Origin: an uncultured bacterium
GTDB lineage: Bacteria > Oederibacteriota > JAAXVQ01 > JAUVAV01
Direction of reading: 5' to 3'
DNA: 64,000 nucleotides
Assembly: GCA_965371665.1 (NCBI GenBank)
Contig: CBDUZI010000001.1
Span: 9,411 to 73,410 of the forward strand
A program made the translations under genes and the position numbers. Position 1 is the first letter of the stretch. Every line of letters begins with the position of its first letter. Of this stretch, positions 24,345-64,000 are shown piece after piece. The notes under the pieces are model-generated. The model searched no databases, was not told the origin of the DNA, and saw nothing but the letters and a program-made list of their open reading frames with translations.

Positions 24345-24435
24345 CCTTTCATACTTAATTCGCCGTTTACCTTAGGTTTGCATTCTTGCAGCCTGTAAAG
24401 AAGTTTATATTTATTCCGCTCCAGATAATTTTTTT

Positions 24436-25660: not shown

Positions 25661-25662
25661 CC

Positions 25663-28600
25663 TTACGCGGCCATGGCGGTGCTGCGGAATATCCTCCGCC
25701 TGTATTTCTCAAACGCATCGCGGTCGATGCTCACGGGCAGCAAATTCAGGATGTCCCGGAATGCGCCCAAAGCTCCGCTGTTTCCGGGCTGCAGGAGCAG
25801 CCCAGGTACCAGGATGTCTTTATGCTTCACGCCCCGCGGGGTCGAATCCCATGCAGCCAGGCTCTGCGCCTCGAGGCTGGCCATGCTTCTGCACAGTTCG
25901 CTGAAAGTGGCCACAGATCGCTCGTGGTCTTTGATTAACGCCCGGGCCTCGGCAATGTGCCCCCTGGTTCGCAAGCGCCTGATCTCGACCCGCTGGGCTT
26001 TGAGCATGCGGATCATGGCTTTTACAAAACGCTGCGTGTTCTGTGTGCTTGGATTCAGGCTGAAACGCAGGTAAGCCTGGCCGAGTGCGCTTTCCGGATT
26101 ACGCAGCAGATCCGCTAGCGTTGAGTTCACTCCTACCTGGTTGAGCACTACATCAATATAACCCATGGGATTCTGACTCCTCATATTTTTGAGCACAGGC
26201 TGCGCAATCCCTAGGGGCAGGATGAACGCGGCTAGGCGCATGGCCTGCAGGCCTAGCGTGCTCCGGACAGGCAAAGCCGGGATGGCCTCCTCGACCTGGC
26301 CGTCAAATACTCTGGCCTTCACACCCACAGGCAGTTTGTCTGCAGCCACCATAGCCGGCGTGATCTTGGTATTGAGTGGGCTGGAGAGCTTAAAAACCAT
26401 TTGGGCGGACATGACAATCTTAACGTCGCCAACCTCAAACTCATGGGTGCTGACCTGGCCGGTAGCGACCGCGCGTATAAACCGCTTTTTGATTAATTCT
26501 TCTCCGATATCCCAAATCTTGTCGTTCTGATTTTTAAGTCTGGCCAGCCGCACAGACTCTGCCCGTTCGGCCTCGGCCAGCAAGACAGGTCCGATTTCGG
26601 AATCCAAGGGAACCAAAGTGCCGGCAGCTACAGGAGTTCCGTCTGCGGCTGACCAAGCAGCAGTCAGGAGCTTATTCAGGAACTGCAGCCGCTTGCTCAC
26701 GCCTGTGTCCTGGCAGGATTTCTTCTTTAAATCATAGAGGGCCTGCTGCACCCGATTCTGGAGGTTCTTATAGGAAGCAGGCATAGTCATCAGGTAGACT
26801 TTTTGGGCCTTGACGTCCTCGTCCGGTTGTGCTAGCTCACGTTCAGGATCGCCAACAGGCAATTCCGCCTGGCTCTGAATCAGGAGCGAGAGCAGGTCAT
26901 TGAAGACCATGGCCTGGAGCTCGGACGCCAAGCTGCGGCTCTCCCTGGCCAGATCGCGTAATCTTGCAGCCTGACCGCCTTCCTCTACGCCCTCTACGGA
27001 TTCCATTACCTTCAACAAGGTTTCCAGGTTCGGTTCAGCGCCCTCCTGCAAAGCGGTCTGCAATTGTTCGCGTATCTGAGTTAAGCTGAGATCTTGTTGT
27101 GCTTCTGTAAGGTTTTGGGCGGCGGTCAGCCAAATTTCTGCCAAGCGAATAATTGAATGCACACCTAAGGCAACAGGTTTTCCTGTCTGTTTTTTGATCC
27201 AGGTTAATGCTGGTGTCCCAATTTTGAGCGAATCCGATCCCTGTTCAGGTTGCTCCTCGTCCAGTTCCCTGGTCCCAACCCCGAAGCCCATGGCCATGGC
27301 CAGCGGATCCAGCCGGGTTTTGGCGTAATACCGCTCAGCCTGGTAGCCCGCGATTACTGCAAAGAGGAAAGCATTGATGCGGTAAACCAAACGGTCCAGG
27401 CGCGAACGCAGGCTGTTGTCCAGTTCTGGCACCTGCTGAGAAAGAGCCTGGAGCAGGCGGTCTGGCACATAAATCGTAGGCCGTTGCGCGCCCTTACTGT
27501 CCAGGTCTCCGTACTCAAGATACGCGCCCAAAGCCTGGCCATGCACCAGCCGGCTAAACCCGTTCGCCTGGAGAGCGGAGAGTGGTCTAAACAGCACCTG
27601 CTGAATCTTGAACTTACGCGCTGCGGCTGCATCTGGAATCAACAGCAGGCGTTTCATCCGGTTGAGCAACGGATTGTTATCATCTACGACCACAGGCTCG
27701 GCCGTACGAGGGTTGAGGAAGATCAAAGTCGCAGCCTGCAGGAGGGCCAGCACTGGCATTAAAAGTCCTGTTAGGGCGCCGAGTGGTGCTCTCAAATTCA
27801 GGTTCCCGGCCTGGCTGCTGTCATTAAAGAATAGGGCTGAAGTCAAGCCGTAGCGCAAAAGCCTTAAGGGCCAGAACCGGATGCCGCGATAAGGCAGATT
27901 CATGTCCTCCCCGGCCGGCAGGATCTGGTGCAGACGCTGCAATTTGCGGACTAATGTTGAGGGGCCGGCCGTATCCCCTGTAGGATGAGCCTCTCGCCTG
28001 CCAGTAAGCACGGCATCCTGCTGTTTTTCAGACAGGCGAGACGCCTGTTCTAATAATAACTGAATAGTTAACTTGTGGATCGAGCACACCTGCGACCAGT
28101 AGGCAAGCAGCTCTGCAGCCATGCGAGTGCGCGGTTCCAGGCCTTTTTTCCGGCGTGCCTGGTGATCGCAGCGGTGGGCATCCTCATGCTCGAAGATCGA
28201 GCGCTGTTCTGCAGGTGTGAGATAGGAGAGCCGCACCAAATTGGCTATGATCTTGCCGCTGCCAGGATCGTAGAAAGTGATTTTGTTCAGGTCAGTGGCA
28301 GAAAAGCCGGCGCGCTGCTCTAGGGGCAAGACCGCCATGTCCACAACATTGGGATTTTTCACGAATTGCGCGATGACTGTCTGCTGAACATCGCCCCGAG
28401 GCCGGCCATCTGCAGCCCTGCGGCCACTCCACCAGATGCGGGCAGATTGCAACAGGAAGAAGCCGGCTATGGCCGGCATCAAGACTACACCCAGCCCTCC
28501 CAGGATGAAGCCGGCCGCACCCAGGCCCAGGCCTAAGCCAGTGAGCCCGACCAAGGACGCATAGCCGAATACCAGGGTTGCGTAAGCGCCCATGGCGCCA

Positions 28601-31600
28601 AGGGCTGCCAGGGCAGCGGCTGCCAAGCTGCCAATGCTCGAGACCAGTTGGACGCCTTCTCTGGGCAGGACCTGCCGCCAATGTTCCAGATATTCCAAAA
28701 TTTCTTCGGTCGGCGGCAAGCCTCGCAGGAAATCAGCCGTATCCGCAAATCCGAAATACTGCGCGTAGAAATTTAAATCCTTCTGATCGGTTGGAGATAA
28801 TTCATCATACGTGTATTCGTTGATCGCCGGCAGGTCTAGCTCAGGCAGATGATTCGTCGAATAGAGATACACTCCAGCATAAGAATCAACCAGATCGTAC
28901 AATTGTCCATAAGTCTGAAGCTCGTTCACATTGCCGATGTCTTCGATCCGGTAGCCGGCTTTGGCTAATATCCGCCGGAAGTCTCCCTCGGAAAACTCGT
29001 AACAGAAATATCCTCCGCCCCGGTATTGGTGCAGTTCCTGATTAAGGACATTGACCCAATTTCTCCAGTCACGGGCATCCAGGGTCTGCTGTCCGAGAAA
29101 CTCAGGCAGGGTCTGGGTTCCCGGGAAGGGCTGGGTAAGCAGCTGATCACCATAGGAGGCGAGAAAGAAAGCTAACTGGTCAAAGCGTAAATTTAAAGTA
29201 TTGACGAAGTTCTCAAAATCCCGATAGCCCATATTCTGCGCGATTTGATTGTATTCTTCCAGGGTGTAATCGCGGCCCAAAACGTGGTTTAAAGCACCTG
29301 CCAGACGCCCGACATTATCCAAAGTGATGGTTTCCTTGCCTCCCTGCTCCACATAAACCCGCTGACCGTCCTCACCTCTAAGATTCAAGGCGTAGAGCAG
29401 GTTTTCAAACAGGGCGTTAGTCTTACCGGACAAGGGATGGTAATAACCTGTTTTCCCAAAGTGGAAGGGACTGTCTCCCAGGAACTGGCTGAGCTGCGGC
29501 GGATAAACTTGCTGGTTTTTATATGTGGCCAGGTCCCAGATATAGTTCCAACTGCGGCTGGTTACATGGATGCCGCTCCAGATCACAAAGGCCGCGAAAA
29601 CGCTTAATTTTGAGCTGCGTGATACCCGATACAGGAAATTATTGAATCTTTTGGTCTTGGCCAGCGCCACCATCAGTGATAGAAAAAACACCGTACCAAG
29701 CTGTAATCCCCAGGTGTTGTACCACATCCGGCTGAAGTTGGCGATAATCTGGAGTTGTTTGGGTACTTCTTGGCTACCGGACAAATCCCGCAAAAATTCA
29801 CGGATCAGCGCCTGTTGCAGAGCCCGGTCCTCTGCCTGTACCGGGTAATTTTGGAGAGCCCGGGCATCGGGGTTGACAGAATCCAGCAGGGTAGACCGGG
29901 TCGGCTTTTCCCATACCGTCATTCCGCCCCGCAGGAAATCCAGGCCTGGCAGGACGCCAATCTGCTTCCAACCCGTGGCCACCAGCAGCCGGTTATATCC
30001 CGCATTTCCACTGATGACACGGTCTAAGCCGTATTGCTCATTATTTATTAAAATATCAATCAAGGGTGTCATGGAATTCATGCCGCGCTCAAAACCCAGG
30101 GTCGCAGCATCGTATCTGACTTCTGAAGGCGTTCCTTTGAAGCGCTGGTTGTACTGAATGGTATCCGCCATACGGCCCAGGGAAACGCTTGGAATGCTTG
30201 TGATAATCGGGAACTCCGCTCCTACGACCAGATAGCGGGTGTTCACCGTTCCCAGGCCTCTTAAACTGTTCGTATCTAAAAGCATGTTCAGATCCGGATA
30301 TCCAGACGGATGCAGGGGAACGATCTCTTGGCCGAGTTGCAGTTCTCCTGGTCCTGGAAATGCCTCTGGCACTCCTTCGGCGCCAGCCTCGATTTTAATA
30401 ATCCGTCTTCTCATATCTTGAGTCTGGGCGCCGATCACCAGGTTTGGCGTCGACCCTGTCTCCTGCAGAGCTATGTTTGCCGGTATTTCACCTTCCCATT
30501 CATAAACCGCTTCCAATCTTTCGCTCAAGGTTTCACCTTGAGCGGTGATTCCTTCCAAGTCAGACGAAACAATAGTTTTGACTACAAATTCATAATACTC
30601 ATCGGTTTCTACATCTTTTAAAAGCAGTTTTCTGACCTCCGGGGTATCCAGGTTGTAAACCATCACTCCTGGGGCATAAGCCGGGGTAAGCCGAACCCAG
30701 GTCTCTGGCTCCCCAGCGCGGTTCGCCATATCCCGAGACACCTCGATAATGATGTTGGAGTTGGCGCTCGGCGTGCGGCTGTGTACTCGGGCAATCAAAA
30801 ATTTAGGCAATTCCCGCAAGCGAAGTCTCCGGCTGGCAAATCCATATTCCTCGATTTGAGTTGTTGTAATTAGTTCCCCACCCTCGACCCGGGTCGATGT
30901 AAACCAATCCTCGGGATTTATTGGAATATTAACTTTCGGGCGAGGTAGTTGTCCGGGTTTGATTTTTTCCATAACCAAGGCTGGAACCCGGATAATGTAA
31001 AAGTCAAACCAGGCTCGGGCAGACCGGTTTTCAGTCTCGCTGAACTGATCGACTACGCCTAATGAAACTTCGAAGGATTGGTTTCCAGATAAACCCCATT
31101 CCCGGAGCAGATCTGCCAGATTAATCCTCTCCTGGTTACTCTGGCTGTTGAATGCAGCATAAACGTATCCGTCTGGCAGGGACGGATGATGAATGGCGAC
31201 ATAGTACGTGCGGGTTATGTCACTGATCTCCATATTCAGCCAGACATTTTCGCTGTCCAGATCCACGCGGATAGGCTCGGGCATGCGCACGCTGGCCCGA
31301 TTGGCGCCGGAAGTATTCGCGCCGCGAACTAGCAGGCCTCCCTCTTCATTCCAGTCTACCCGCGCATCCTGGAGGTGTGCCTCCTGCAGCTTCACAGAGG
31401 TATAATAGTCATCGATTATCTTGTGCGGTTCAATATCGCTTTTGTCGGCGTAAACATGCATGACCCGGTCTGCGCCCGCGGGATCGGACAAAGCCGCAGT
31501 GTTCTCCTGCCCTATCTCTCCAAAGCCAGCAGCTTCGACTTCAGGCGATTGCGAAACTTGCCCGGCCTCGAACGAGCCGAATCCTCCGCTGATATCATGC

Positions 31601-34600
31601 TCCGTGAATACCGCGCGGCCGATTTGGCGTACGTAATCATCGCCAGCTTCAGCCGGAAAATTCCCGAGCATCAAGAAACAGTTCAAGTTGTATTCATGCA
31701 GCATATTTTTGATTCTTTCGATCTGCGGGCCGACCGGTTGGTGCATGTCTTGCACCTGGATGGAGATACCATCGACCTGCGCCAGGGTAAGAGGTCTAAA
31801 CAGGATATTATGGAAGGCATCTGCATAGTCGAGCTGAAGAATGAGCAGATGTTTGTCACCGTCGATTTCTTTGAGGAAAGGAATCATTCGGTCATACCAT
31901 TTAATCAAGTCTTGTCTGAGATTGATTCTCTGCCAGTCCGTCTCGGGGGTGTTTCTCAACAGGACATCGGGTCTGTCGGACAGACTATAAACAATATTAG
32001 GATAACTATGCAGCCTTTCCACTATCGTCCGGACGTAATTTTTATTCTCTTTATAACTTTTTGCTATTTCGTCTGGGTAAATCGTATGTAACAACGCTCG
32101 ATTGAGGCTTATAATATCTTCTTCTGCCAGGATCTTTTGGGAAGCTGCCGCTTCTTTCGCTTTTGTTAATAATTGCTCAACTGCTGGAGATAGTTTGAGC
32201 TTGTCAGCATCCACTTTGGTATATAAATCAGGCATTTTCAGGACGGCATTGAATGCTTCAACCGCCTGTTTTTCTGTAAGGGTTGGCAGTTCCTCGATAC
32301 CCATGTCAAGTTCTGCAAGCAAAATAATATCGGCTTTACTTTCCCCTTTTAGTATGTACTTTAATCCCTCGACATCTAAATCGCCTTCGCGAAACACCGA
32401 AGAGGACTCAATGTCTCCCCCAAAATCCTGGTAATTTTCAAACAAGCTGACCACAACCATGATGTTTGCATCCTGGGCTAGCTGTATAAAATTTTCTAAC
32501 TTGTCCAAGTAGCTGATGTTGACATTGGGGCCGCCGAATTCAGTGTAGGGAATCTGCATAATGACACTGTTGGCATTCTTATCTCGCAGGCCTTGCACGA
32601 GTTGGCCCAGGGATTCCGGTGTAGCATTTTCCCACCAGCCCGGCTGGGAAGTGTCTAGATTAAATCCCCAAAGCTTGACCACGTTGCCCTGGTCATCGGT
32701 AATTTGTCCGTAGCCCATGGCCGGAGCTCCGCGCACCTGGTAAGCACCTCGTCCGCCCATTTCGATGGTTTGCAAGGACGGCACTTCATAGTCGAAGATC
32801 GCCTGCAGCTGTCCGGTCCCGGTAACCTGCAACCAGTAGTTACCTTCACGATCCTCCACCTCCCTGTAGTCCACGCCCACGTATAGTCCCTGACGGTTAC
32901 TCGGCATGGAAAATTCACTTCGCCAGGAGCCGATGTCGATGCCTGCCTCAGGATAAACAAAACCTAATCGAGACCCCCAATCCATGCTATTACCCTTAGA
33001 GTCAAGCATGGCTTGGATTTCAGGCGGACACTGGTCCGGCCGCAACGTCTCAATGCCCCGAATGTGCGCACCCATGCCGGCTACAGGGGAAACACCTCCC
33101 GTAGGCAACGTTTTGCGCGAAGACTCCGGGTCCCTTTCTATTTGGAGCGGTGATTCCTGCCATTGGCCGGTTATACCCATATCAAAGCGTATGGCCCCTC
33201 CCATCTTTGCCAGTTTCTCCGGAGATAACACGATGTAATAAGTACTGGGAGCAGGGATATCCCAAGTAGCTAAGGGTTTGGGAACACCCAACATAGATTT
33301 CCTGGACATTGCTTGTCCGCGGGTTTCTATGCGCGATATGGCCAGCCTGTCCGCTTCCTCGGTCGCCAGTATTTTAGCCTCGGCTATTTTCTCCTCTGTT
33401 TCCGCACCCTGCATGAATCTTTCCAGGGCGGTTTCATAATCGGCTCGCCAGGCGCGCATTTCTACATCGTTCCCAAACTGTTCCTCACTAGGATCTAGTT
33501 TAAAATACAATTGCGCATTGGGGGAAAGTTGATCCACCTGGATGGCAATAATATTGTAGCCCTCTGGCAGAACCATCTTCCGGCTGACATAGCCCCGGCT
33601 ATGCCGCGGGCTGGTTCCGATCAGCGTCAAGCCCTCGGAGTCGGCGCTGAATTTTAAACCGTATGGCTCCCACTCCCAAACCCGCACTCCCTTTACAGAT
33701 ACGTCGTACCGGTCCCCGGCTAGGGGAACACTCAAGCGGCCGCTGTCCAGATTATCGGGTACGCCAGGATCATACGGCAGGATTTCGGGAGCCGGCCGCT
33801 CGGTGTAGTCTACATTCAAACCCTGCTGGTAGGCGCGCATGATATTCATGGCAATACTATTATCTAAAGTTTCATCCTCGCCTATTCGGTTCCGGAAAAA
33901 GAGAGTTTGCAGATAGCTAGCTGCCCGCAACCGATCCCAGCCTTCAATATTAGTCCACTCCGTGGCCAGATCCGGGTTCAGGCTGAGGAAGGGATCGAAT
34001 CCGGCAAGGAGCGCTTCATCGGATAACGCCGGGTTTTTCTTCCAAAAGTTGATTCCCATCCTTTCTTCGTGTCTAATAAGATCGGTAGATGCCAGGAAAT
34101 AATTCAGGGCAGACGCGGGAACAACGGAGAGATTCGGGAATCCGGGAATAGTTATCTTTCTCCAGCGCAAAGCTTCCCGGGTTTTTTCGGCGTGGGCATC
34201 CACCATGCCGAAAAAGTTTTCTATGGTAAGCTGATTAGGCTCATAGGCCACGAATAATTCCGAATGCTGGATCGGCAGAGGCCTATGTATGCCTTTTAAG
34301 GGCTGAAATCGATCGACCATCCATTCCAGACTACGGAGGAAGATGTTCGAGCCTTCTGTAGCAATATTTTCATATTCTCCGGACTCAAAACGCCCCAGCC
34401 CGACCTTCACGTCCGCCAGGGGACTCTGGCCGCCGGCCACAGGCTCAGGCCGAATAAAATGGGCTTCTGGTCCATACCACAATTGCCGGGCATGGATCAT
34501 ACCGTCCAAAACTACATGCGCATCCTCCAGCGAATTAATTCCGTACTCTTTCAGCCGGCCTTCATCGATCAATCGTTGCAAAACCAGCTCGAAATTTTCT

Positions 34601-37600
34601 TCGTAAATCACGCCTTGGGACCACATAGCCTCGACATCAAATATCAGCTCTAAAACGTCCTTCAGACCTTCAAAGCCGTAATCCCTGAGTATTCCGTTGT
34701 GATGGAGGTAGATCACCAGCAGTAAGTCTTTGGCTCGGCCGCGCGCCGCATAAAAGTTCTGCTGATTATCCAGCAAAGCACACGCCTCGTTAATGTCTAT
34801 ATCGTAGTTTTCCAGGACACCACCGGCTTCCAGGTCATTTAGTACCTCCTCGAAGGGCGTGTCCTGTAAAACGTCCCAAAGGACATCGATATTGTCGTTG
34901 ACAAATTCCATCTCATGGAAAGGCAAAAGCCTGACGTCTTGCCGTTCCAGCAAATAGGCCGGATGCCGCGTCCAGACATAGCGATAAAGAATCTCGGGAG
35001 TCCAGTACTTAGAGAAGAAATACTTGGGCCAAGGCAGCAGTGTCTCCCCGTTCATGCCTGAGTCTTCTCTTAAAAGCCGCTCGAACTCCGCATAGGTAAG
35101 CGGATCATAACCATTCTGTTCAACGAGATGATTCAATTCAAGCAAGATGGCCCGCATGGCCACCTTCTGGTCAGAGCGCTCCACACCCCTTCCGATATTC
35201 GTTCTTTTCAGTTCCGGCATGAACGTGGATTTCAATTCATGCTGCAGGCGGTCGCCAGGATAAAAATTGAAAATCTGCCAGAGGTACTGCGTGACTCTCG
35301 ATTCCAGTTCCCGGGCAGAATACCTGGCCAAAATATCGTTCCGGTACGGCTCCCAAAGGCCGTGAGCCTGCAGAAGTCTCATTTTCTCCTGGGGTGAAAT
35401 CGTACCGGCCTGAAACCGCCGCAGGGCGATGATGTCCCTGACGTCGAACCGGCCTTCCTTTTGCAGGGCGTTCAATTGCACGAGCAATCTGTCCGCTTCG
35501 TCGGGAAAAGCCCATTGCTCGGTTAGCAGGTTATCGAAACCGGCCGGGGAAAAACCCATGAGGCTTAAAAAATCTTCCAGTTCAATGCCATTTTTCGGAA
35601 GAGACCGCTCAACGGCTGGAATACCGCAAAAGTCGAAGACCCGCGATTGTTCGGTGAACCCGGTTACTGTCGGCCCGACCAGCGGATTGCCAGAAGCGCT
35701 AATGGCAAACTCAAATCCACCTGCTTCGGCCACCATGAATTCCCGGTATTCCTGTTCAAAATTATCCGGCCGAAAGACCGCTTCATCCGGAACAATGTAG
35801 TTCCAGTAATATCGTTCATCCCAGCCATCGGCTTCAAAGGCTGCCCAGCGAAGACGGGTTTTTCTCTCCAACTCGGCCACGATCCATTGCTCATCCTGGA
35901 TTACGTTCTGCACGTTTTTGGCATTCACCTGGGAAGGCTTGAGGAAGCGGGCAATTTCATTCTGGATTCTGAGGTACCAGTTATACCTGGCCAGTTCGGA
36001 AACATTTGGATTATTCGGATCATAGCCGTAATTAATATCCCGCACCGTTCGGATGAAAAAGGTAAAACTGATGCCCATGTCCTGGCAGAAAGCCCTGATG
36101 CTCTGGTAGTCGCTTAAGTCCAGATGCTCCATTTTCCACACTTCAGTCTGCTCCGATTCCAGCCGGACATCTTCCAACGTTCCGCAACTATCTTCCGGGC
36201 TGGGATGGGTAGTTAAGCTAATTCTTGTTTCCACGACATCCTCGATGGGTATTTCCGCCTTTTCAATTACCATCAGGAGGTCCACCTGGCTGTAGCCGTG
36301 GATAAACCACGGTCTGACTTTTACAGTAACCTCATCCTTGGTAGTGGTTTTTACCGTTAGGATGATGTCAAGGTAGCCTTGCCTGCCCATATAATTACCA
36401 GTAGAATTGTAGCGTAAAAACCGGGTGGCCTGGATTTGTTCTCCGGATACGATCCAGCTGATTCCTGCTGCGGGTTGGTCAGCCAGGGATTCAAAGGCGT
36501 AATGATTCTCGACGCCTTGCTGTGTGGCGGTGAACCGGGTCGGGTCGGTGGCATCCTGCGCCAGCATCACCACGTCGCCGGTGATCTCTGCCGTCGCGCT
36601 GGTTAAAGGCATAACCATGGTCGGAAAAGGCTCGGCCCGAACCTGGTTCGCTGACCGGTAAAGCACCTCTTTGGTGCTTTGAGAAAGTAGATGGGAATCG
36701 ATGTAAGCAGGAATTTCACCCTCTTGCTGCGTTACCGGAGTAAATATGGTTTTTAAAGCTCCGGGAAAACCGCCTGTCTGTCGCTCCTCAGCTTTACGGG
36801 CGGCGGCTTGTGGTTTGCCCACTTCGCTGGTGGTTGAGCCAGAAGATGCGAAATCCGTTGCAGGCTTTCTGGAATCCGGACCGGTATAATAGATCAGGTA
36901 ATCCAGACCCTGTTGCAGGCTGGGTATGCGCAGCGGTCCGATTCGCATTTCTGGCGTCAGCATGGCAAGTCCTTCCGAATATAAATAACCTGATAGGCGG
37001 GGGGATTGTCCTAGCCAGGTAAGTACACTAAGGATAACCGGCGTGAAAAACCACATCAGTCTCCACGCTGCCTTAGAGCGCCAGCTTGCTTCCTCAGGCA
37101 GCTTCTGATTTCGCGCCTTTTCTTTGCTCGCTCTCCAGAAATCCGGACGTTCTGGCAAGATAGCCCGCAGCTTCTGCTTGTCCCGGAAAATCCAGAACAA
37201 TCCAGCAATCATCGAAACAAGCACTCCCGCGCTGACCGCAAACAGAAGAGGAGCGATAAAGTTGCCCATAAGAAAAGCAATAATGCAGAAAACCAGGGTC
37301 AGGCTGAAAATAATTTTCCCAAAAACACGCGCAGTGGATTTGCCCATGACACCGGTTTTTTCTGCAGCCACTAAGCCGAGCGCTGCCAGAATACTGATCA
37401 TTAGTGCAGCCAGGATATCTAAAAATGCAAAATGGATTGCTCCGAAAAGGACAACCGTAAGGACGAATCCGAATAAGAAGAAATAGCTGAATTTAAACAG
37501 GCCCTTGGTAATATCCCCGGCCACCTTCCAGGTGGCCCAGTTCAAAGGCATCTGGCGTAAATGCTGCACATACTGCCTCAGATTCCTGATGGAGCCGCGG

Positions 37601-40600
37601 ATCTCTCCCACCAGTTTTTCCAGCACCAGCAACAGCAGGAACAAGGCGATGACGGGCACGATCAGCGACAAGTTGAAAATTATTGATAGGATGATCATTA
37701 CCACGGCAGCCATGGCGACGACTTTCCAGCGGCTGCGGAGAAGTTGCTTTAATCCGAAGTAATTGAAATATTTGAATAAGACTGCGAGAAGAATAATTGT
37801 CGGCACTGTATAGACTATACTCATGGGATCGGCAGATAAAACCGTTATCACATTCTGGTAGGTGGAGATAAAAGCGGTAATTATCCAGTCGATAATATTT
37901 AGAATAATTTCAACTATTGGAGCAGGAACATATGGGACCACAATATTTCTCCAGACCCATATGCTAATTGGGACCGGCAGCATGAGTACGATCGCCCGGA
38001 TGATGGCCACGAAGAGGTCCTTGGTTAGCAAGACCGGGATTTTAAGCCGTTCCGGCATCTTTTGGACAACTCGCTGGTTAAATACCCAGGATATTCCAGC
38101 TCCCACCAGAGTGGTTTCCAGCATCCGAAGCAAGGCTTCACTAAATGGAATAGCGGTAATGATGCCCAGGCCAGGGACCATGAACAAAACCGCAACCTGG
38201 TACATCAAGGTCGGAATCACGCCATAGGCCATCTGGGACAGGGATTTCAAGCTACTGTGGCGGAAAACCCGTTCGATTAAGACTTCCAGGATATAGGCGC
38301 TCAAGGGGGCCAGGATGATAATCAAATTAACGGTGAGGATGGTTTGCCAGACATTATACTCCACGCCGACTTTGGCTAGATTGGTGATATTTTGACCCAA
38401 AAAATCAGAAATACCCGTGAAGAAGGCGAATACCAAAACATTCGCAAAAAACATTCCACTTATAGGCATCTTGAACCGGATAAAGTAATCTGCACCGTAC
38501 TTCCCGGATACTACAATGGCGGCCTTGACGGGTATCAAGATTTGTTGCTTAACACATTGCCACAGAGGCTGGTAATACCTTTCCCAAAGCTCAATCAGCC
38601 GATCTTTGAGCTTTATCAAAATATCCTTCACCCGACGCAATATATCCAAAATCTTCTTCTTCACCCACTTAAGCCCGTCGCTAATTTTCGTAATTGCCGT
38701 TTTCACAAAGCGGATCATTCGCTGGACGAACTCGATTCGCAGGATCAGAAACAGGAGATTTTTGACGAACCTGATGGCAGCTTTGACGCGATTAACGATT
38801 TTGATGACGATATTATCTTTAATCCAGATAAGAAAATTCACAATAATGGGACGGATGATCCGGACAAAGGGACTGACGATCTCCTCGTAAATCCTTTTCG
38901 GCAGGGTAATTGGCAGGACGAGGGCCAGCTGTTTGACCACGTGTCCGATCTCGTGAACGGTTATACGTACAAAGCCATGGGGATCTAATCCGATATCGGC
39001 CAGGATCCGGCCGATGGGGTTGACCTTCCAGACCCACTGTGCCCATCTCTGGTACCAGGGCAGCTCTCTTTGCAAGGTCTCCGCAACTTGCAGCATCATG
39101 TTGCGCATGACCCGGCTCGGCGTGCCCTGTCTGGATTGGAGGGCGCGGTTGAGCAAGGCCGTCTCGGTCAGGGCGCGTTTGCCTGCCTCGGTCTCGAAAA
39201 AGGCATAATAGTTTTCGAATTCCTGGGCAATTTTTAAGATATTGGGCGGAATGAGGTCTTTAAGTTCGTTTCTGGAGGGTTCACTGACTGCCATTTCCAC
39301 CGGTACTTCAACCGCCTGCTTTAATCCCAGGTACCGACCAAGCACACCTAAGACTATCAAGAGTCCCAGGCCCATGATGCTTCCAGCGAGGATGGCTGCT
39401 CCACCCATGAGCATGGTAACCATCCCGCCAGCCAGCAGAGCCAAGCCAGTAATACCCGCAATAATCATCCGCGTACTTACACGAATGGGGGTATCCACCT
39501 GGCCCTCCCCAGGCGCCATGGTTTCCGGTGGAGAGGTTTCCCTGGGCGGAACCTTATCCTGCGCGAATGGATACAGGGCCTCCAGGAAATCCCCCATCAT
39601 GGCCTCACGTGCCTGGTCAGAGGTAATGGCGTCGATAAACTTCAGCAGATCCGTAGTATATTTATTAGCCTGCATGGCTTCGGAATCCGATTCCACCACG
39701 TCCGTGCCCAAAAAGGTGATTCTTCCACCGAGCTCCTGATTAATCTTGATGGCTATTTTTTTGATTTCCAATTTTCCCCGCGACGTTTGGGCCAATTCCC
39801 GGATTTCATCGGCGATTTTGACCAAATCAATCGTGGTGCCTTTTTCGAGATAGAAACGCCGCTTGAAAAGCTGGAATAGTTGTTCCGCCGTGATCTCGAC
39901 CGCTTTGCCCGCGAAAAACGTCCGGTTTAAATGCCAGGCAAACAACTTCATGCCGTTCATGCGCATTTTAGCGACATCTTCCCTCATGATGGCTTCATAA
40001 CCGCCCAGAAAGAAGAAGCGTAGGCCTTCGGCCAAATGCACACGGTAAATATCCGGGATCGAGCGCAAAGCCATGGGCGGAGCTCCTGCGAAATTGGCCA
40101 GCGGTCCCGGCCGTCCGGTTCCGAAAGTATGGGACATTATGTGGATGGGACCCTGCCCCTCGATGACTCCCTGGTATTTGGCCAGATCCTCCTCCTCGAC
40201 CCAGCCGGTATGAAGTATCGAGCCGTACAACAGTCCCATGATGTATTTGGCATAGGCTTCACCCGCATATTTATCCCCGGCAAACATAGGACTCGGGTGA
40301 TCACCACCGGTAAAATGAATTTTCGGAATCACGCCAGGCAAGGCTTCTTCCACCGCCCGCTTCAGTTCTGCTTCCAGTTCATTCAAGCGCTCCTCTGCAG
40401 TCAGCCGGGCTTCCACCTCAGGACGTAGCTGAGCACGAAGTTCTCCCCGTTTTCTTTCGATTATGCGCACCATGGCGGGGTAATAAATGTCGGTAAATTT
40501 GTAGCTTCCCAGCTTGCCAAAGGTGAAAAATATCCATTTCTCTATTGGCACCCGCGTAAAGTCCACCGGTGGAGTGACCTCGGCCATGTCCAGCAGGTGG

Positions 40601-46600: not shown

Positions 46601-49600
46601 AGGCGCACGGCCGGCAGGATGACTTCATCGCCGCTTAAAGCGGCAAGGTCTTGGGGAGAAATCAAACCTGCGCTGGCGCCTAATTTTTGGGGATCCAAAT
46701 GAGAAGCCAGAACTATACCAGCAGCATAGCCTTTATCGGCAAGCCATTGATTTGCTTTGGCGATAATGAGTTCACCGTTGGGTTGACTTAAAGCTTCACT
46801 ATTAATCATAAATCTTTTGGTCCCGGACCATTGGCTGATATCCGACCGGGTTTCTTTGTCTCCTTGCAAGGCAAAATAGATTTTTATTCCATAAAGCAGG
46901 ATCGGTGGCACCAGTATAGCCAGTAAGGGATTTATCACTGAAATGCTCAGGATACCTAAGCCGCTTAAAGTTTCGGCCAGGTTAGCAACCGCATCTAAAC
47001 CTAAAAAGCGAGTGTACACCCAGAAGCCCAGCCCCATTCCGGCAATGATTAATCCGCCCCCCGCGGCTTTGCCTGCCATTCCAATTTTACCCTCTAATTT
47101 AAAAAGGCGGAGTATTTCGGCGAGTTTTTTCGCTCGCACGCCAAACAATTCAATAAATAGAATGGCGCCGAGCCACCACAACAAGTGCACCAGTTCAAAT
47201 CCCATGATCGTCTCTATCAAGCCAGACCAAAATACGACGTAGGCTGCAAAGGCACTACTGCCTAAAAAGCTTGCTATTCCCAGAAATTTATTCCTGGTTA
47301 TTCCATATACAATAAAATAACCCATAACCAATGCAGTCAATGCAACAGCACTTCCCAACATGATTTGAGTTCCAAAGAAAAGCAATCCCAACCCAAGGGC
47401 AATGGCTCCCAGGGATGCTAGAACCTTGTTCTCCAGGGCGCTCCGGATTTTCGAGGATTTAAAGGCAGGCGTATCCTTGCCTTGCAAGAGGGAAATGACG
47501 GTCTGTCCCAGATTTTTACCTAGAGCGTCGATTTGTTCCGAACGCAATGGGGTTGAGCTCTTCTGGATAATTAGTTCCAAAAGTTTATTTAAAGGCGTAT
47601 TTTTTCGGCCTGGATTTATGCCTTTGGCCGTGCCTAACGTCAAAGTGCTGCCTTCGGAAAATTCGGCGGGTTGATAGGGATTCGGACATAGATTCAAATT
47701 CCCTTGCCCAGCCTGACCTGTCAAAACAAAATGTTTCTCGACTAACTGCTTTATGGCTCCGTAGTCAGAATGACGCAAGACGGTTTCCAGAAGGCCATTT
47801 TTAAGTTTACTTATAACTTCATCTGGTTCCTGTCTCGGCCAAAGATAAGCCGCAGCACCTATGGCGAAAAGCAGAGCCCGGGGGGACTTCGCTGCAGCCA
47901 GCGAAACTCGCAAAGCTTGAAGTCTTTTCTCTTGGTCTGCGTCTAAAGTTTGGGCACCAGCCAGATCAATAATCTCCTGGTCCAGCCTATGTATCTCTTC
48001 ACGCTCTTTTTCCTCTGCCTGGGAACCCAATGTTTCTGCCAAAGTCTGAAGCATATGTTGGTTTTTTGCTTGAATACTCTGAGTATCGCGTTGTACCGGT
48101 TTAGCTTTTTCAGTTTTTTTAGCCGTCATGAGTACGTTTAAATTCGCTTCGAATATTTCCGGCTTGCTTCTGTCCAGTTTTAAGGCCACGTTTAAAAGGT
48201 TTTCCGCTTCCTCGCCCTTGAATCCAGCAGCTTGGATTTTCTGACGCAACTGCTCTTCAAACTTATCAATCTTTACCTCTTTTGGCTTTTCATCTTCATA
48301 CAGCTCTTCCTGCTTCTTCAATTCTTTTTCGGCCCAGGCCTTGGCCTTTTCCTCGCTGAGAACCGGGCCGATCAGGGTTTTATATTCCTCGCGAAGATCC
48401 GGATAATCCTTGCTAAGAATCATGCCGGCAAAAATTTCCAGGAAGCTGAACCATTTCCAGCGATTCGGCTTATCGAAGAGTGTGCCCGGGTATTGGGTGA
48501 CATCATGACCCGTGACATGGAAGAGTCTTTGCTTAATCGCGGCCAATAAAAATTCTCCCGGCTCCCGTCCGCCCACTCTGGTCTCGGCCTCGGATTCAAT
48601 CCAGGGAATATCCTTGCCCATGACCTTATGACCCGACATCAGAGCCAGGGTAATGAGTTCGGTTTCGAATTCCATCTTGACGCTGCTGGCAAGTTCAAGC
48701 GCTTTCTTGACAACCTCCGGCCGAAAAGCCTTAAATCCGGCCTGCGTATCCGGCACTCCTCCCAGCGGGACAATCGCCCGGACCATGAGATTAAATCCCA
48801 GGCTCAGGATATGCCGCGCAAGCGGCTTGGCAAAAACCACGGATTCCGGGCCTACGCGCGACCCGTAAACCAGTCCGACATCCGCATTCTCAGGATTGGT
48901 CAGCGGTTCTGTGAGCTTGCCAAAAAGCCCGGCATTGGTGGAAACATCGGCATCTATATAGCCGGCTATATCCACCTCGTCTTCTTCCACCATTATTTTA
49001 TAGGCCTCGTACAAGGCTCCGCCTTTTTTTTCCTGCCTGGCGAATTTCAAGCCTTTGCGGTCGAAATAATACTCGACCCTGATCTGGTCTGCCCGGTGTT
49101 CAAAATCGCTTTCGATCACATTCTGCGCCAGCCGGGCTGAAGCGTCATCGTCTGTGGTAAAAAGAATCCTGGGGCCTAAATGTCCGGCCTTTTTATCAGG
49201 ATCACTTGAATAAGCTACTCCCTCTTCTACAATAGTAATCGTCATCACATCCAGCTTTTCCACACCCTCTTTTTCAGCCTTATCCAGCTTTTCTTTAGCC
49301 TCTTCGGCGTCTTTCTTGGCATCTTCCACCTTTTTTTCAAGGTTTGGGTCCTGCTTAGGAACTAACAGGTTAAGCTTTTTTAATATAGCCGGCAGACTGA
49401 ATATCAACCCGCCCAAGCCGGCCAGCCCGATACCTGTCCAGGAACCCAATATCAAGGCCGCTGGAAAGAAAAAAGTCATGACCACTCCGGCGATGATTAG
49501 AAGAATGCCGATAATCCCGGCAGCAAGCACAGTGTTTTCATCCCAGGCATTCAAGGCTTTACGCTTTTTGCTCAAGTCTTCGTGGTTTTTACGCGCCTCT

Positions 49601-52600
49601 TCTTCATCCTTTTCGATTTTCTCCATCTCCGCTTTTCGGAGTTTTTCCAAGCCCACTTTCGCGGCTAGTCTCAATTCCTTTATCTCTTCCTCCGTAGGAT
49701 TGCTTTTTACCTTAATGACCAGGTGATTGCTTTTCCTGTCCTTGTCCTTTCCTTTTTTAGTAATGCTTTCTTCTATCTGCTCGATGGGAGTAACCTCCTC
49801 CAGAATGTCCTTGCTCGCTTGCCAACTTTTCGTGCCGTCGTTATAAGGATGGTTGGTTCCGTCCATTAACAGCACTTTCCAATCGACTCTTTCATTCCAG
49901 GCCGCGTTATCGTCGATTTGCCGAACTTTTACGCGCAGAAAATCCTCCCCATTAGGATGACCCAGCACCGGGTCCTCGCTAAGATTGGGGAAAATCCGGT
50001 TCTGTTCCCGGTAAAACGAAATTGCCACGCCCAGGAGCAGTCTGTCCTTTCCTTCCGGAATCCTGGTGTTTCTCATATCCACCTTTGCTTCCGCAAGTTT
50101 CAGAATATAGCGAAACATGGTCCAATCTATTTCCTGCATATCATTTGCACTGAGCCGAATAACTTTTTGACCGCTTTGCTTAAATAGCTTTATTTGGTCC
50201 GAGCTCTGTCTTTGGTATTCTTCCGGGGTTAAAACCAGATATGGCAGAAAAGCACCCTGCATAGCCACAGCCTCTGCTCTTTCCATCAGCTTTACGCGGG
50301 TTTGTTCGATATCTTGAGAGAGAGAAGGGCTTGCGGCCTCAGACGTCCGGACCTGGGATATTGCCTGGAGTCCATCCCTGACTTTTTCCAAGGGCGCCAG
50401 CAATTTTGGCGTGAGCCCTCCTTGCTCATAGTTTCGAATAACTTCATTTATATTCTCTAAACTATTGTCAATATTATCCTGACGCCCGGGATTGTCTTGA
50501 TACAGCTTGAGCAATTTATTAAATGCTATGACTTTGGCTTCATACAAAATGCCTTTGCGGCCGATATGCACCAGAATGGCCTGGGCACCTGCCACATCGC
50601 CGGCGCTGCCTAATTCCAACGCTTCCCGGACGATCTTATTAATCTCCGAAATGACTTCGGCATTGGCTTTTTCGGCTTTTTTATTTTTTTCCTGTTCCTT
50701 TTCCAGGATTTTAATCGCCTTGCTTTTATCGATCAGTCGTTTCTCGCCTAAAGCCTTGATTAAGTCAGGATCGGCTTGCTTGCGCTTGAAAACATCATCC
50801 AAATACTCTTTAAATTCATCCGCGTTCGGCGAGAGCAAGGCCGCCGCAAGCACGCTGGACATAACCATGGTCATGGCTTCATCGGCTTTCAACCAGGTCA
50901 TATCCGTGTCTTGCTCATCAGCTTTTTTGCGTTTTTCATTGACCTTGTTCTTGACCGCAATGAGCGTGGCCCTGAGATCTTCCGGCGTGGTCTCGGCGGT
51001 GAATAAATCCTCCAAATTTTTTACGGCTTGCTCTTTTTGAGCCCTCGTTCCTTGCCATAAGTGCTCAAACAGTCCGCCGGATTTAAAGTGTTCATCCCTT
51101 AGTAAACTATTGCCTTCTGTTGGACGGATTTCGGGTCGGGCAGGAGTGGCCCGGCGTTTTTTGTAGAAGTAGCTTAAAAGGCCGGCGATCAGCGTCACGA
51201 TAGTAACTTGGATAGCAGCCAGGGTGATCCGGCCCCGGCTGGTTGAGAACAAGGGAGCCCGGGGCGAACCTTCCAATACGATGTGATCCAATATCTCAGG
51301 ATTGGTCTGGGCCACATACTGAATAACTTCTAAATCCGGGACCAGGCCTTCAGGGCTTAAAACTCTCCCGCGCTGCAGCGCCTCGGGCAGATACTTGAAT
51401 TCCCAGGCCATGGCATTCCCGGTCTGAAGATTGCAGATAAGCCCGTCGCATTGATCCATAACCGGTTTCATTCTTTCAAAAAGTTCAGCCCGGATCCAGG
51501 CCTGCGATTTCCCCTCTGCCAGCCAGGCCTTTATCTCTTCCTGGTAAGAATCCATGGAAAAATGCCAGGAATCAAAGGTAATTCCAACCGGTGCGGGTCT
51601 ATCCGGATGTCGGCCGGCCCAGGCGTCTCTCAAGGCCTTCGCATACTCGATCTGATTCATGAGGTATTCATCCTGACTTATGCCGGCGGCTTCCAGGGGT
51701 TCGAACAATTCCCTGGCTACCGTGGTTTCAAAGGTGATGGTAATATTGTTATCCGCGGCTTTTTCCAGCAGGGCCAGTTCTTCGGCCGTAGGCGCTTTTC
51801 TGGTCAAATGGTCCTCCATCGCCTGGGGATCTTGTTCCAGGGTCTTGACGTCGGGTTTGGTCAAGCGGAAATAATTCGCCCAGTCATAAGGATGAATGTT
51901 GGCCTGCGTAGGTTCGGCATGGGGCGTATTAACAATATCCGTAAGGGATAAAACCTCTTCTTGCCAGGGAATGTGATAAGAGCCGACTTTCAGGTTTAAT
52001 TCTTTGGCAGCCTGCAATTGGTCTGGGGTGGCATATACCTCGACTCTTTCCGCTCCGGTATAAAGCTGCCAATATTTTATATACATACCCATGAGTGGTT
52101 TCAAAAGAATACCCCGCATAGACCAGAAGCCGGTAGTAGTTATGTGCCCGCGGGACATAAGTTCCTGGGACAATTCAGAAAGCGGGGCCTCCTCGATTTT
52201 CAGCTGCTCGAGCACCTGGGCCGGCTGCGCCACATCCGGACTCACCTGGGTGGTAGCCGGGGCGGCCTGCATTTCCGTGACTCCCGCAGCCTCTGGTTGC
52301 GTCATGGCGGAAACATATTGATTTCCTGGAACCCCAAAATACCAGGCGCCGGCTGTCAGGGTCAAGACACTGAGTAGGGCAAACGGAAGGAGTAGCGTCA
52401 AATGTTTGCTTTTGAAAATATTCTGTACTGCTTGCGGCAGCTTATCGTTTTGCAGCAGCCTGGGTATACCAACTCTTTGCTGCACCTGGTTCCGGATTAA
52501 CAACAATGTTCCAAGAACAATTATAGCCGTACCGCTCAGTCCAGCCACCCAACCGGAAAACAGAATGAATGCAGCCACGCCGCTTAAAAAAAGCGCTGCG

Positions 52601-55600
52601 CCTGTCAAGGTTGTCAGTACCGGCCTTTCAACCGATCTCCTGGTAGAAAGGGTGATATCTGTCATGCGATCACGCCAAGATCGATAAGCGATCGTTAGGG
52701 AGCCATCGTTTTGCAGCCAATAGGTTCCTACTGCTCCTCGCAATTTGGGATCCGCTCTAAACGTACGGACAACTCGCCAAATATTCCGCCTATACAGTCG
52801 GGTGGTTGCTTCATCAGCCGTAACTACCAGCAGCACCTTTTGGGCATTGCAGTCGATGCTTAACGCTGTTTCACGAATAAATTCCATGAGCTCATTGTTT
52901 AAACGCCCGGGATCATTAATCTGTATGACAACTAGCGGACGGTTCACCAGGCCAAAACTGGCTATTTGGATCGGAGAGGCCTGTTCGGCTTGCAAATTAT
53001 CCCCACCAATCTGGCGGAACCGGCCGGCCCTCGCCAGCTGGTAAAGCCTATTATCATCGGCGTTTGCAGGGATCGGCTCAAAGGTCTGTGAAACCCAAGG
53101 TTTCAATGCTTCTGATTCGGCAGTCACTGCCGCTTGTACATCTGTCGGCTCTTTGGCTGCCACCATTTCGGCTTCGGGAACTCGGGTTTCAGGCACAGCA
53201 ATCGGTACTGTCGCCACTGACGCAACCAGCTCGGGTACGGCTTCACCGAAGAAATCCTGAAAGATGGCGGCGGCCATGGTTTTGTATCGCATCAAGGGAT
53301 CTCGGTTTTTCAAAAACATCCTTAAATTAACATCTTCCCTGGTGCTCTCCACCGGATGCAGGAACCTTGCACCCCAAGCCAGGCGCAAAGCAAAGATGAT
53401 ACTTTCGCGCAGCTGATCCGGAGTGCGCTTCTGGGATTGATAACGTAAAGCCGCAGCCCGCACAAGATTTTCCCGGAAATGTTGCCGGGCTTTGGCTGAA
53501 CTGCCCTGCCCTATAACGGATTGATATTGGTCGGCCAGCGCTCTGAGGTCTGCCTGCGATAAGGCAATACCGCGTTCCTGTAGTTCGGCAACCAGCAATT
53601 GAAATCCATTGAGGTCCAGCAACCGTTCCGAAGTTATTTCCGCTTGAATTCTGCGAATCAATTTCCGGCGCAAATCTCCACCTTTAGTTTTGTCTGCCTG
53701 GGCTTGCCGGATAAACGATCGTAAAGAGGTGCTCATATGGGGAAATAGGGTACTAAGGGCCCTAACCATTCCAGAGACTTCCCACTCATACGGATTGGCA
53801 GCCCGCGCATGCATCTCCACGATCAGGGCGGCCCGCCTTTTCAAGGCTCTGCGTAATGCTCTCCGGTTGGTAAAGCGTGCGGTAAGTTCGCCCAAGGTTT
53901 GCTGGATTGCGCCTCGAACAAAGGTATCCAGCTCAGCAGCATCATATTTCTTAACCTGTTGGATTAAAGCGCGGAATTGTTTATCCGCCGAATCCAGCGG
54001 TTGTAAATACTGGTCATTGTAAGCACGCATATCGGCATCCCGCCGGGAAATTCCCCGATGGATACGTCGAATATATTTAACCACGTTCTTACCCAGGGGG
54101 GTGCCGACCAAATTAACCTTCGTGTCACTTTCCAGGCTCTGGACAAGTTTTTTGACGAAATCAGGTGCATAAGTCTGGAAGATATCATCATCCATCAAAC
54201 TGTAGATGAACTGGGCAAACCCGCGTAAACCCTGCCGGGCCACGCGTCCGAAAAGCTGCTCACGCGCGGTCTTGCTCGGCGGAATCTCGGCTTCGATGGC
54301 CAGCATGTCAGGCCCTACGACGTTGAAGCCCAGAGTACCGCGGGGGTTGGTAATGGTAACGACATTAGGCAGGGCCGCGATCTCACGAATGGCTTCAAGA
54401 TTTTTCTGAGTATCGGAAGAAATTTGACAAAGTGTCAGGATCCGATATTGTTCCCTAATACGCTCTTCTGCAGCCTGCCGCGCCTTGGGTTCAGTAATCT
54501 TCGCGGCTTTGGCCATCTGGACGCGTATTGCCTTTCCTTGGGCCTTAGCCTGGGCCACAATGCGGGCAACCTTTTCAGGCGAAGCGCGGGCATCGATGAC
54601 TTCCACCGTTAATCCGGGCTGTGCTCTCAAAGTCTTTAAAAGACTGTGGGTTAAATTCATTAGCTTGCGGGTAGTGTATGTTCCGAGCAAAGTTCCGGCC
54701 AGGGGTCTGTGCTGCCCTATGATCTCCTGCAGGGCCTCGGTCTGATGATAAGGATATAAGTGAATCTGATCGGCATAACGATCCCGGACCAGTGAGAGTC
54801 CGTGGTCCGAAGGCAGGAACAGCGGCTCAAATCCCATGCGCTCGCGAAATTCCTTGAGTTCCTCGCGGTTGCCGATAGTGGCTGACATATAATGCAAATA
54901 GGGATAACGCCGGGCATATTGGGCTATGGTCAGCTGGCTCTGATAGTCGCTGATTCCGGTAAACCGGATGCCGGCCCGGATCGCCGGATTAGTTTCTTCC
55001 AGAAAGGCTTTGGCCTGCAAGGCTTGATGGGTACCTCCCCTGATTTCCTGGCCATGCATGTATTGCCCGGTTAAGCGGTTGTAAAGGACTATAACTCCTT
55101 TAACCAAACCATACTCAATTCTACCCGCTTGTTGCGGTCTGGCGCGCGATTGGCCTTCGGAAAGATTGGTCTGGATGAATAAGAATTGCGCATCCAGCGC
55201 GGTCCGCAGGTAATGCTGCAGGACTGGAAATTCCGTCAAATCCCTCCCTTGGGGTAAACCCAATATGGCTTTTACCCGCGAACGTCCTGCCGGGGTTAAT
55301 GCCGCCAATTTGATATCTTCTTCAATCTTTACTTTGTACAGGTCCGCATCCTCTGCCACCAGCTTAGCAACCTGGGCAAAATATAGTCGTATGACCGCTG
55401 GATTAGAACGGACCAAATCTTCAATTTGCCGGAAAGGCGGCAGGGATTTGAAACCAGCCTGAGCTAAAAGTCTCGGTAGTGCCTCACGAGCCTGGGAACT
55501 TAGCCGGAGCTGTTCAGTCGCTAAATCCATCTCCAACATACCAGGAGTCTCGACGAGAGCTCCTATCAACATTTTAAGCCTCTGGTCCTGAAGCGGTTCC

Positions 55601-64000: not shown

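Follow-up and report, generated by a model that had tools for sequence, protein, structure and literature searches.

The 64,000-nt stretch of contig CBDUZI010000001.1 analysed here (the window) carries on its minus strand a single giant gene, whose product was found to join a complete SecY channel domain to a SecA-like ATPase motor in one polypeptide, alongside a glycoside hydrolase (GH) domain and repeats resembling carbohydrate-binding modules (CBMs). This SecY–SecA fusion is the most unusual feature of the giant protein. A first-pass annotation made from the letters had listed SecY-like and SecA-like modules, both of which were borne out by Pfam and by PDB sequence searches, but had missed their fusion as one unit. 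Residues are numbered from the first visible codon at the window edge (aa 1), and Pfam and NCBIfam were run on overlapping tiles (1,000 aa for Pfam) spanning all 12,778 aa. In the Pfam tiles, GH5, SecY, SecA_DEAD and P-loop_SecA all scored above their cut-offs.

The frame is stop-free over window positions 25666–63999, that is, over 12,778 codons. From the region's own base composition a stop would be expected every 21.3 codons on average, giving log10 P = −267 for zero stops in 12,778 codons, and over the same span the two remaining frames of the same strand contain 604 and 712 stops. Codon-position GC content followed the order GC1 > GC3 > GC2 in 14 of 14 blocks of 900 codons. These data, together with an orthologous open frame that occupies an entire 9,474-bp contig in another FCPU426 metagenome-assembled genome (P0001, below), confirm the earlier claim of a continuous gene of more than 38 kb: the giant gene is real, and it is one gene of at least 12,778 codons. 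The 12,729 aa reported by the open reading frame (ORF) caller begin at an internal TTG (63852). Because the frame is still open at the window edge, the N-terminus of the protein is missing. An alternative genetic code was considered as the origin of the long frame and rejected, since reassigning one stop codon cannot abolish all three stops; translated with table 11, the flanking genes have normal lengths.

Mis-assembly could in principle have joined several genes into a chimera. The assemblies available for the same sample are fragmented, with about 4× coverage and a break at window position 25508, and the internal repeats that the first-pass annotation regarded as an assembly risk do exist. 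However, only two were found at the DNA level, one between 60542–60898 and 63644–64000 and the other in tandem (61652–62027 vs 62075–62450), and at 82–84% identity the risk of repeat collapse is low in the visible part. A chimera, moreover, would not keep one frame over 38 kb (P about 1 × 10−267) with a uniform coding signature, nor be matched by a collinear orthologue over aa 1256–3927 at 44% identity. An artefact of this kind is scarcely credible.

Three other public assemblies of the same sample (L001–L003) end at window position 25508 (two assemblies) or 25498 (the third), one of them reporting ~4× coverage. All three breaks fall within 25339–25662, the spacer that separates the giant gene from the neighbouring permease gene, and so these assemblies give no independent confirmation of the permease/giant-gene junction. 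An exact look-up of the permeases in other contigs returned only contigs of ≤3.3 kb, none reaching past position 64000.

The SecY domain matched its Pfam family at aa 2111–2422 (E = 1.9 × 10−40, 139.6 bits against a cut-off of 32.2), covering positions 1–304 of the 306 in the profile, and aligned with residues 14–419 of E. coli SecY among the PDB sequences (E = 1 × 10−34). At the pore ring, which we take to be formed by E. coli I82, I86, I187, I191, I278 and I408, the SecY of the window has L, F, T, L, I and I. Five of the six are hydrophobic, and position 187 varies in canonical SecY too. Segments rich in Arg and Lys flank SecY at its N-terminus, and the uncharged segment at aa 2454–2517 at each of its two ends. 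We infer that this segment is a two-helix hairpin through which the chain, leaving the C-terminus of SecY on the cytoplasmic side, reaches SecA on that same side. The post-SecY hairpin is kept in two relatives, P0001 and P0002.

The SecA part was recognised by Pfam as SecA_DEAD at aa 2524–2764 (E = 5.7 × 10−16, 59 bits against a cut-off of 24.6) and as P-loop_SecA at aa 3071–3290 (E = 3.5 × 10−7, 30.5 bits against 27), and it aligned with SecA in the PDB sequences, where matches to SecA2 were weaker than those to SecA1. The preprotein cross-linking domain SecA_PP_bind reached 19–20 bits against a cut-off of 23.5, a cut-off exceeded in the relatives P0005, P0231 and P0045, and SecA_SW (E = 4 × 10−4) also lay below the Pfam cut-off. 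Walker A (ATGQGKT, aa 2664–2670) and the DEAD-like motif IDDEGH (aa 2777–2782), followed by EAGTP, are kept in the relatives. In motif VI (GRVARQGLRG, aa 3251–3260) the R, R, Q and G are invariant in 78 sequences. The two-helix-finger sequence LRMFLKNRDPLMRYK (aa 3559–3573) aligns with the canonical LRxY.QKDPLxEYK, with Phe at the fingertip. All four motifs were found to be conserved against 77 canonical SecA sequences. An AlphaFold2 (AF2) model placed a 47-residue helix after the second nucleotide-binding domain (NBD2), and Foldseek ranked full-length SecA (4ys0, E = 9 × 10−20, template-modelling score against the target (TMt) 0.58) ahead of truncated structures.

To place the fusion among its relatives, aa 2034–3233 were searched with HMMER against 1.84 billion representative proteins. 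Six family members outscored ordinary SecY, and one related SecA fragment appeared lower in the list. P0001, a partial protein of 3,157 aa that fills its contig and is annotated as 'candidate division FCPU426 bacterium', is collinear with aa 1256–3927 at 44% identity over 2,687 aa, and is thus an orthologue fragment. P0002 (2,037 aa, labelled '[bacterium]') is 38–41% identical, and P0005/P0231 are 28–30% identical; these begin with Met, and their N-terminal parts differ. SecY is followed by SecA_DEAD in P0001, P0002 and P0005/P0231, so that three relatives preserve the fusion in its SecY-then-SecA order. In a neighbour-joining tree with 60 canonical SecY sequences, which is crude and open to long-branch attraction, the four fused SecY domains were monophyletic, with longer branches. 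Their median identity to canonical SecY was 27%, against 38% among canonical SecY.

More distant matches shared the motor. A 462-aa fragment labelled Omnitrophota (P0045) was 36% identical to the SecA part, where canonical SecA reaches about 25%. A single locus (L084:1–9238, JGI Ga0247841_10000171, on a 177-kb contig) was matched by a degenerate DNA pattern written by hand for a SecA motif. It is a frame of 3,079 codons, open at either end, in which a SecA part 33–35% identical to that of the window precedes HEAT repeats and a CofD domain. This is a different giant gene, with only the SecA-type module in common. Word-indexed homologue searches returned nothing with a 1,617-aa SecY–SecA query and only canonical SecA, at ≤26% identity, with a SecA query. 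Scans of the genome collection with the SecY–SecA module, and of metagenomes with alignment A2, also returned nothing.

A split copy of the region was seen on one 26,809-bp ENA contig, where P0006, P0004 and P0003 divide the homologous SecY–SecA region into at least three ORFs. One of the breaks corresponds to window aa 2203/2204, inside SecY. Either this copy is decaying, with frameshifts, or the breaks stem from indel errors in a long-read assembly.

Compared with canonical SecYEG–SecA, the unit shares a SecY with 10 transmembrane helices and a SecA with NBD1, NBD2, a putative region for preprotein binding, the finger motif and a scaffold helix of considerable length. It differs in forming one polypeptide inside a giant protein, in its very divergent sequences, in the replacement of the C5-loop Arg, and in large insertions that bring the SecA part to about 1,080 aa from the canonical 800–900. 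The order of the domains has an engineered precedent. In SecYAEG, the C-terminus of SecY is likewise linked to the N-terminus of SecA, and the fusion translocates protein in vitro (Sugano et al. 2017, PMC5562318), which indicates that the order is mechanically compatible with translocation. SecYAEG, however, is man-made, its linker is soluble and it depends on SecE and SecG, whereas the fusion described here is natural, has a conserved linker read as a two-helix membrane hairpin and lies within a protein of more than 12,000 aa.

The remainder of the giant protein was mapped in the same tiles (Table 1). Hydropathy analysis gave 38 uncharged hydrophobic stretches, in agreement with the many transmembrane clusters noted earlier, and showed the product to be a many-pass membrane protein. 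Many of the stretches are 42–52 aa long and are probably two-helix hairpins. Internal comparison showed that aa 1–149 of transmembrane module A are 69% identical to aa 1035–1181. The region between the second copy of this module and SecY is presumably cytoplasmic. Within the 'dark' region, aa 4001–4254 resemble aa 6061–6311, and helices rich in Ile, Val and Lys, amphipathic-looking by eye, precede the dense polytopic cluster. Over the roughly 9,000 residues from aa 3601 to the C-terminus only noise-level matches were obtained (E up to 1 in Pfam and up to 0.1 in NCBIfam). Searches of PDB sequences with all the non-Sec parts were empty, and a two-sequence profile of aa 870–3930 retrieved SecY and SecA as its sole matches in the PDB. 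Glycosyltransferase (GT), methyltransferase, NUDIX, peptidase (including C39 and S8) and dockerin/TSP3 domains were all absent from the Pfam and NCBIfam matches of the visible 12,778 aa. The GT2-like domain proposed earlier had no match in either database and no QxxRW motif, and the Lys-rich stretches were not recovered, as no 60-aa window reached 25% Lys.

Table 1. Features of the giant gene and its immediate surroundings, in window coordinates; residues are those of the visible protein.
Feature	Residues (aa)	Window position	Strand	Basis
Giant ORF, at least 12,778 codons, 5′ end past the window		25663..64000	−	TAA stop at 25663–25665
Hydrophobic transmembrane module A, cut by the window edge	1–151	63547..63999	−	
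GH5 (clan GH-A), copy 1	195–470	62590..63417	−	Pfam PF00150 and motifs
CBM-like beta repeats R1 and R2, and third copy		61177..62445	−	Internal comparison, AF2, Foldseek
Transmembrane module A, second copy, and further transmembrane hairpins	1035–1258	60226..60897	−	
Region of ~780 aa free of transmembrane segments, kept in P0001, no known domain	1259–2040	57880..60225	−	
Full-length SecY channel domain, 10 transmembrane helices	2054–2430	56710..57840	−	Pfam PF00344, PDB
Uncharged 64-aa stretch, read as two-helix hairpin	2454–2517	56449..56640	−	Hydropathy/charge
SecA-like ATPase motor	2524–3600	53200..56430	−	Pfam, motifs, AF2/Foldseek
'Dark' region with ≥20 hydrophobic stretches, of which many are hairpin-length	3601–10431	32707..53199	−	
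HExxH no. 1	8349–8353	38941–38955	−	
Dense polytopic cluster, about 9–11 transmembrane helices, no family assigned	8511–8938	37186..38469	−	
Degenerate second GH5-like domain, large insertion	10432–10800	31600..32706	−	
CBM-like beta repeat, fourth copy	10870–11015	30955..31392	−	
C-terminal region, 72-aa hydrophobic block at 11782–11853, no family match	11016–12778	25666..30954	−	
HExxH no. 2	11938–11942	28174–28188	−	
Perfect 16-nt inverted repeat (hairpin) right after the stop codon		25621..25661	−	
Two ABC sugar-type permease genes (BPD_transp_1), directly downstream		23496..25338	−	

Two HExxH motifs had been reported and are present as bare motifs, beginning at aa 8349 and 11938, but neither found family support in the Pfam, NCBIfam or PDB searches. 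They bear on the idea that the giant ORF encodes a polyprotein, cut into separate SecY, SecA, glycosidase and other products, perhaps by the HExxH parts themselves. Long unannotated linkers between the domains would suit such processing, and proteolytic processing has been raised for the giant proteins of Omnitrophota (West-Roberts et al. 2023). The visible part, however, contains no C39 or S8 peptidase domain, and the hairpin separating SecY from SecA, being short and conserved, has the look of a structural tether and not of a linker meant for cleavage. Given also the lack of family support for the HExxH motifs, we consider a polyprotein decidedly unlikely.

Two clan GH-A domains had been claimed from the sequence, of which the first was upheld. 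Copy 1 matched the Pfam family 'Cellulase' at aa 219–456 (E = 9 × 10−7, 29.1 bits against a cut-off of 23.5) and carries VTNEID (aa 322–327) and IFEEMG (aa 413–418), corresponding to the acid/base 'NE' and the nucleophile Glu. With catalytic roles assigned by motif, this copy is apparently catalytically intact. Copy 2 shares 33% identity with copy 1 across 100 aa (aa 10432–10527) and fell below the Pfam Cellulase cut-off (E = 0.011). SLSDRPD replaces its NE motif, and both catalytic Glu residues appear, in a weak alignment, to have been lost. A word-indexed homologue search with the GH5 query returned nothing. A 334-aa ATG-initiated ORF lies antisense to the GH5 domain on the plus strand (62509–63513); it is most likely a shadow ORF.

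The four or more beta-sandwich domains of the earlier annotation correspond to a unit of ~141 aa that occurs in four copies, at aa 519–660, 660–800, 802–941 and about 10876–11010. R1 and R2 are 67% identical in protein and 82% in DNA. An AF2 model built from the four copies predicted an all-beta fold of nine strands with a mean pLDDT (predicted local distance difference test score) of 62, and its top Foldseek matches in the PDB were almost all CBMs (CBM11/30/16/15/65/29), with probabilities of 0.95–1.0. The predicted fold therefore appears to be CBM-like.

Taken together, these features suggest a self-contained translocon built into a giant envelope protein that would bind and cut polysaccharide, a reading to which we assign a probability of about 0.5. 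The fused SecY–hairpin–SecA unit would act as a private, single-chain translocon. SecY would end in the cytoplasm and the hairpin would bring the chain back to that side, so that SecA would be tethered at the cytoplasmic mouth of the channel, the usual insertion site of the two-helix finger. The unit may then thread the large outward segments of the giant protein itself through the membrane and release the transmembrane hairpins sideways, exporting in cis the segments made after the unit, or acting in trans on new copies. The housekeeping SecYEG could in this way stay unblocked during the many minutes needed to translate the giant chain. Once exported, the GH5/CBM cassettes may serve as a membrane-anchored device that binds and cuts beta-glycan, and the products could be taken up by way of the nearby sugar ABC import genes.

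Several observations weigh against this reading. The C5-loop Arg of SecY matters for coupling to SecA. At this position (E. coli R357), 55 of the 60 canonical SecY sequences have Arg. The window has Pro, and across all four fused SecY domains the residues read Pro, Pro, Ala and Arg. No equivalent of SecE or SecG was identified in the visible sequence. The SecA model has a low mean pLDDT (57.7) and is biased towards the canonical fold, because it was built on the 77 canonical SecA sequences. Transmembrane topology was estimated from hydropathy and charge alone and, as many of the stretches are of hairpin length, much of the protein could be cytoplasmic, with few large exported loops. Roughly 70% of the protein lacks a match to any known family, and the CBM matches of the repeat model have E-values of about 1 × 10−2 and TM-scores of 0.4–0.5. 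The first GH5/CBM cassette precedes SecY–SecA, making its export in cis by a unit that is not yet made impossible. Finally, the giant gene lies within 10 kb of the permease pair in none of four related genomes (below), and its adjacency to sugar import is thus specific to this genome.

The first of these points could also be taken to mean that SecY and SecA are degenerate relics, SecY/SecA serving only as a membrane anchor and a generic ATPase, with no translocation. Besides the loss of the conserved Arg, the long branches, the 27% median identity to canonical SecY and the sub-threshold SecA_PP_bind and SecA_SW scores would fit such a relic. However, relatives no more than 30–50% identical retain all the ATPase motifs, the finger motif and a pore ring that is mostly hydrophobic, which argues for purifying selection on translocation-specific features. 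A relic therefore seems very improbable, and a translocon that serves the giant protein itself remains our preferred reading.

How giant proteins bearing SecA domains are exported was left open in earlier work. Those of Omnitrophota have many transmembrane segments and divergent SecA DEAD and preprotein-binding domains, described as being without the scaffold and wing, and SecYEG genes are not syntenic with their genes (West-Roberts et al. 2023, 10.1101/2023.11.21.568195). The same study left two questions open, namely how the SecA domains come to lie at the membrane and what exports the extracellular parts. It reported SecA domains only, and SecY is unmentioned in the text and supplement of a survey of 916 long proteins that includes a SecA_DEAD architecture cluster (Nielsen & Lui 2026, 10.64898/2026.06.07.730766). 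Nor was a natural SecY–SecA fusion described in the open-access full texts searched for SecY and SecA with giant proteins, Omnitrophota or Goldbacteria. The window may hold, then, though we put this a little below even odds, the first natural single-chain SecY–SecA translocon, belonging to a small uncultured clade (FCPU426 and a few unplaced lineages) in which a paralogous channel and motor are fused by a hairpin within giant envelope proteins. If true, it would provide a general answer to the question of how proteins of more than 10,000 residues are inserted without jamming the essential Sec system. A SecA motor covalently tied to its own SecY would also give the concrete and testable form of a machine to what had been a vague 'secretion-related domain', and the SecY–hairpin–SecA segment of ~1,560 aa could serve studies of the Sec mechanism as a natural 1:1 channel–motor unit.

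The first-pass annotation had placed the DNA in Omnitrophota, which was not sustained. The permease adjacent to the giant gene is 76–79% identical to its counterparts in four GTDB genomes, two of them named candidate division FCPU426, while the next matches are at about 35%. Ten more flanking genes match the same four loci, so that eleven in all are 45–84% identical to their counterparts in these four genomes. Together with the FCPU426 annotation of P0001, these flanking genes place the window in or near FCPU426, not Omnitrophota, and the host is a bacterium of, or close to, this candidate phylum. C-terminal domains of the FlgD_ig and Por_Secre_tail types had been read as a further sign of Omnitrophota, but they are typical of FCB-group lineages rather than of the PVC group.

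Also noted in the first pass was a general likeness to the giant membrane proteins with SecA domains in Omnitrophota, and this does hold. The protein shares with 'Archaeovorin' and related giants more than 10,000 codons, dozens of transmembrane helices, a divergent SecA_DEAD module with a putative preprotein-binding part, carbohydrate-active and CBM-like parts, a mostly unannotated sequence and a nearby sugar importer. With 12,778 visible aa and an N-terminus beyond the window, it belongs at least to the 'large' class (≥10,000 aa) of the scheme in which 'giant' denotes ≥30,000 aa (West-Roberts et al. 2023). It differs from them in its phylum, in the complete SecY fused directly upstream of SecA, in retaining the two-helix-finger/scaffold motif said to be missing there, and in the absence of GT, methyltransferase, NUDIX, C39 and dockerin domains from its visible part. 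The Omnitrophota genes are further described as having a type II secretion-like locus upstream; the matching region here falls past window position 64000.

Such a resemblance could indicate a predatory machine of the Omnitrophota type, with which an ultra-small epibiont attaches to prey and digests its cell wall. Size, the many transmembrane segments, the divergent SecA, the glycoside hydrolase and the CBM-like repeats are all in common, the Omnitrophota-labelled P0045 is related in its SecA part, and so is the giant frame of L084. The evidence on lineage, however, points to FCPU426, and relatives were found on contigs of 256 and 438 kb. The enzymatic domains and the finger motif listed above also differ from the Omnitrophota type. 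The FCPU426 16S cluster has been argued to equal Goldbacteria, whose sole described member was captured by binding to labelled cellulose (PMC7031533), although FCPU426 as defined by GTDB may differ from that FCPU426/Goldbacteria group. Such a cellulose binder would also suit the glycan side of our preferred reading. On this evidence we regard a predatory machine as highly unlikely. One more phylum gains giant SecA-bearing genes, with a Goldbacteria member caught on cellulose, and caution is due in that such giant genes may not always be devices for predation.

The link to sugar import suggested earlier was sustained in part, as the two ABC permease genes do lie directly downstream, but this arrangement is not conserved in the four relatives. 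There, the gene order is a surface-protein cluster, the two permeases, a 1,750-aa protein and a binding protein. In the window, the permease pair is instead found between the giant gene and the surface-protein cluster, beside a 1.18-kb AT-rich gap (22317–23495; about 38% GC) with no ORF of more than 84 aa and with short direct repeats, for example 23369–23404 and 23449–23484. As the gene order differs at this point, the permease pair having moved, a rearrangement breakpoint may lie in this gap. The whole window gave no match in Rfam or tRNA scans.

The surface-protein cluster raises the question of other cargo. The fused SecY–SecA could be an accessory translocon, akin to SecA2/SecY2, for separate surface proteins such as the nearby FlgD_ig/Por-tail and S-layer-like proteins, with the giant protein as a scaffold or anchor. 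In Gram-positive bacteria, the accessory Sec system (SecA2/SecY2) consists of separate genes with Asp partners, and its cargo is a glycosylated serine-rich adhesin. The window is alike in encoding a second, divergent SecY/SecA pair with a very large surface protein, and the paralogous clade follows a similar logic; a 15-kb surface-protein cluster adjoins the giant gene, and the N-terminal GH5/CBM cassette requires another translocon regardless. It differs in that channel and motor lie within the large protein and have no particular sequence affinity to SecA2, whose PDB matches were weaker than those of SecA1. The window showed no accessory genes of the Asp type, and neither Asp-like nor serine-rich repeat features were found in the visible protein. 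The surface-protein cluster, moreover, occurs in the four relatives with no giant gene within 10 kb. An accessory role for other cargo is thus unlikely, if still to be taken seriously, and export of the giant protein's own segments is preferred.

The cluster itself (window ~7176–22316) comprises about 11 predicted surface or secreted proteins. Its members include a protein with a FlgD_ig/Por_Secre_tail C-terminal domain (8126–9601), a SlpA_C-like protein of 1,204 aa (9612–13226), an OmpA and UPF0164 protein (16787–18565) and an fn3_5 protein (20581–21567). A paralogous N-terminal module of ~170 aa is common to 14706–15329, 13273–14349 and 9612–13226, and the part from 7176 to 16672 is conserved in L004, L006 and L007.

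Beyond the cluster, a 1,738-aa protein (1568–6784) carries DUF6259 and an NPCBM-associated domain and is 52–61% identical to its counterparts in all four relatives. There, the counterpart directly follows the permease pair and is itself followed by one or two solute-binding proteins. The enzyme that actually works with the sugar importer is probably this DUF6259 protein. The ORFs at 7176–8234 and 8126–9601, on the same strand, overlap by 109 nt, and the GTG start of the downstream gene (8234) was probably miscalled.

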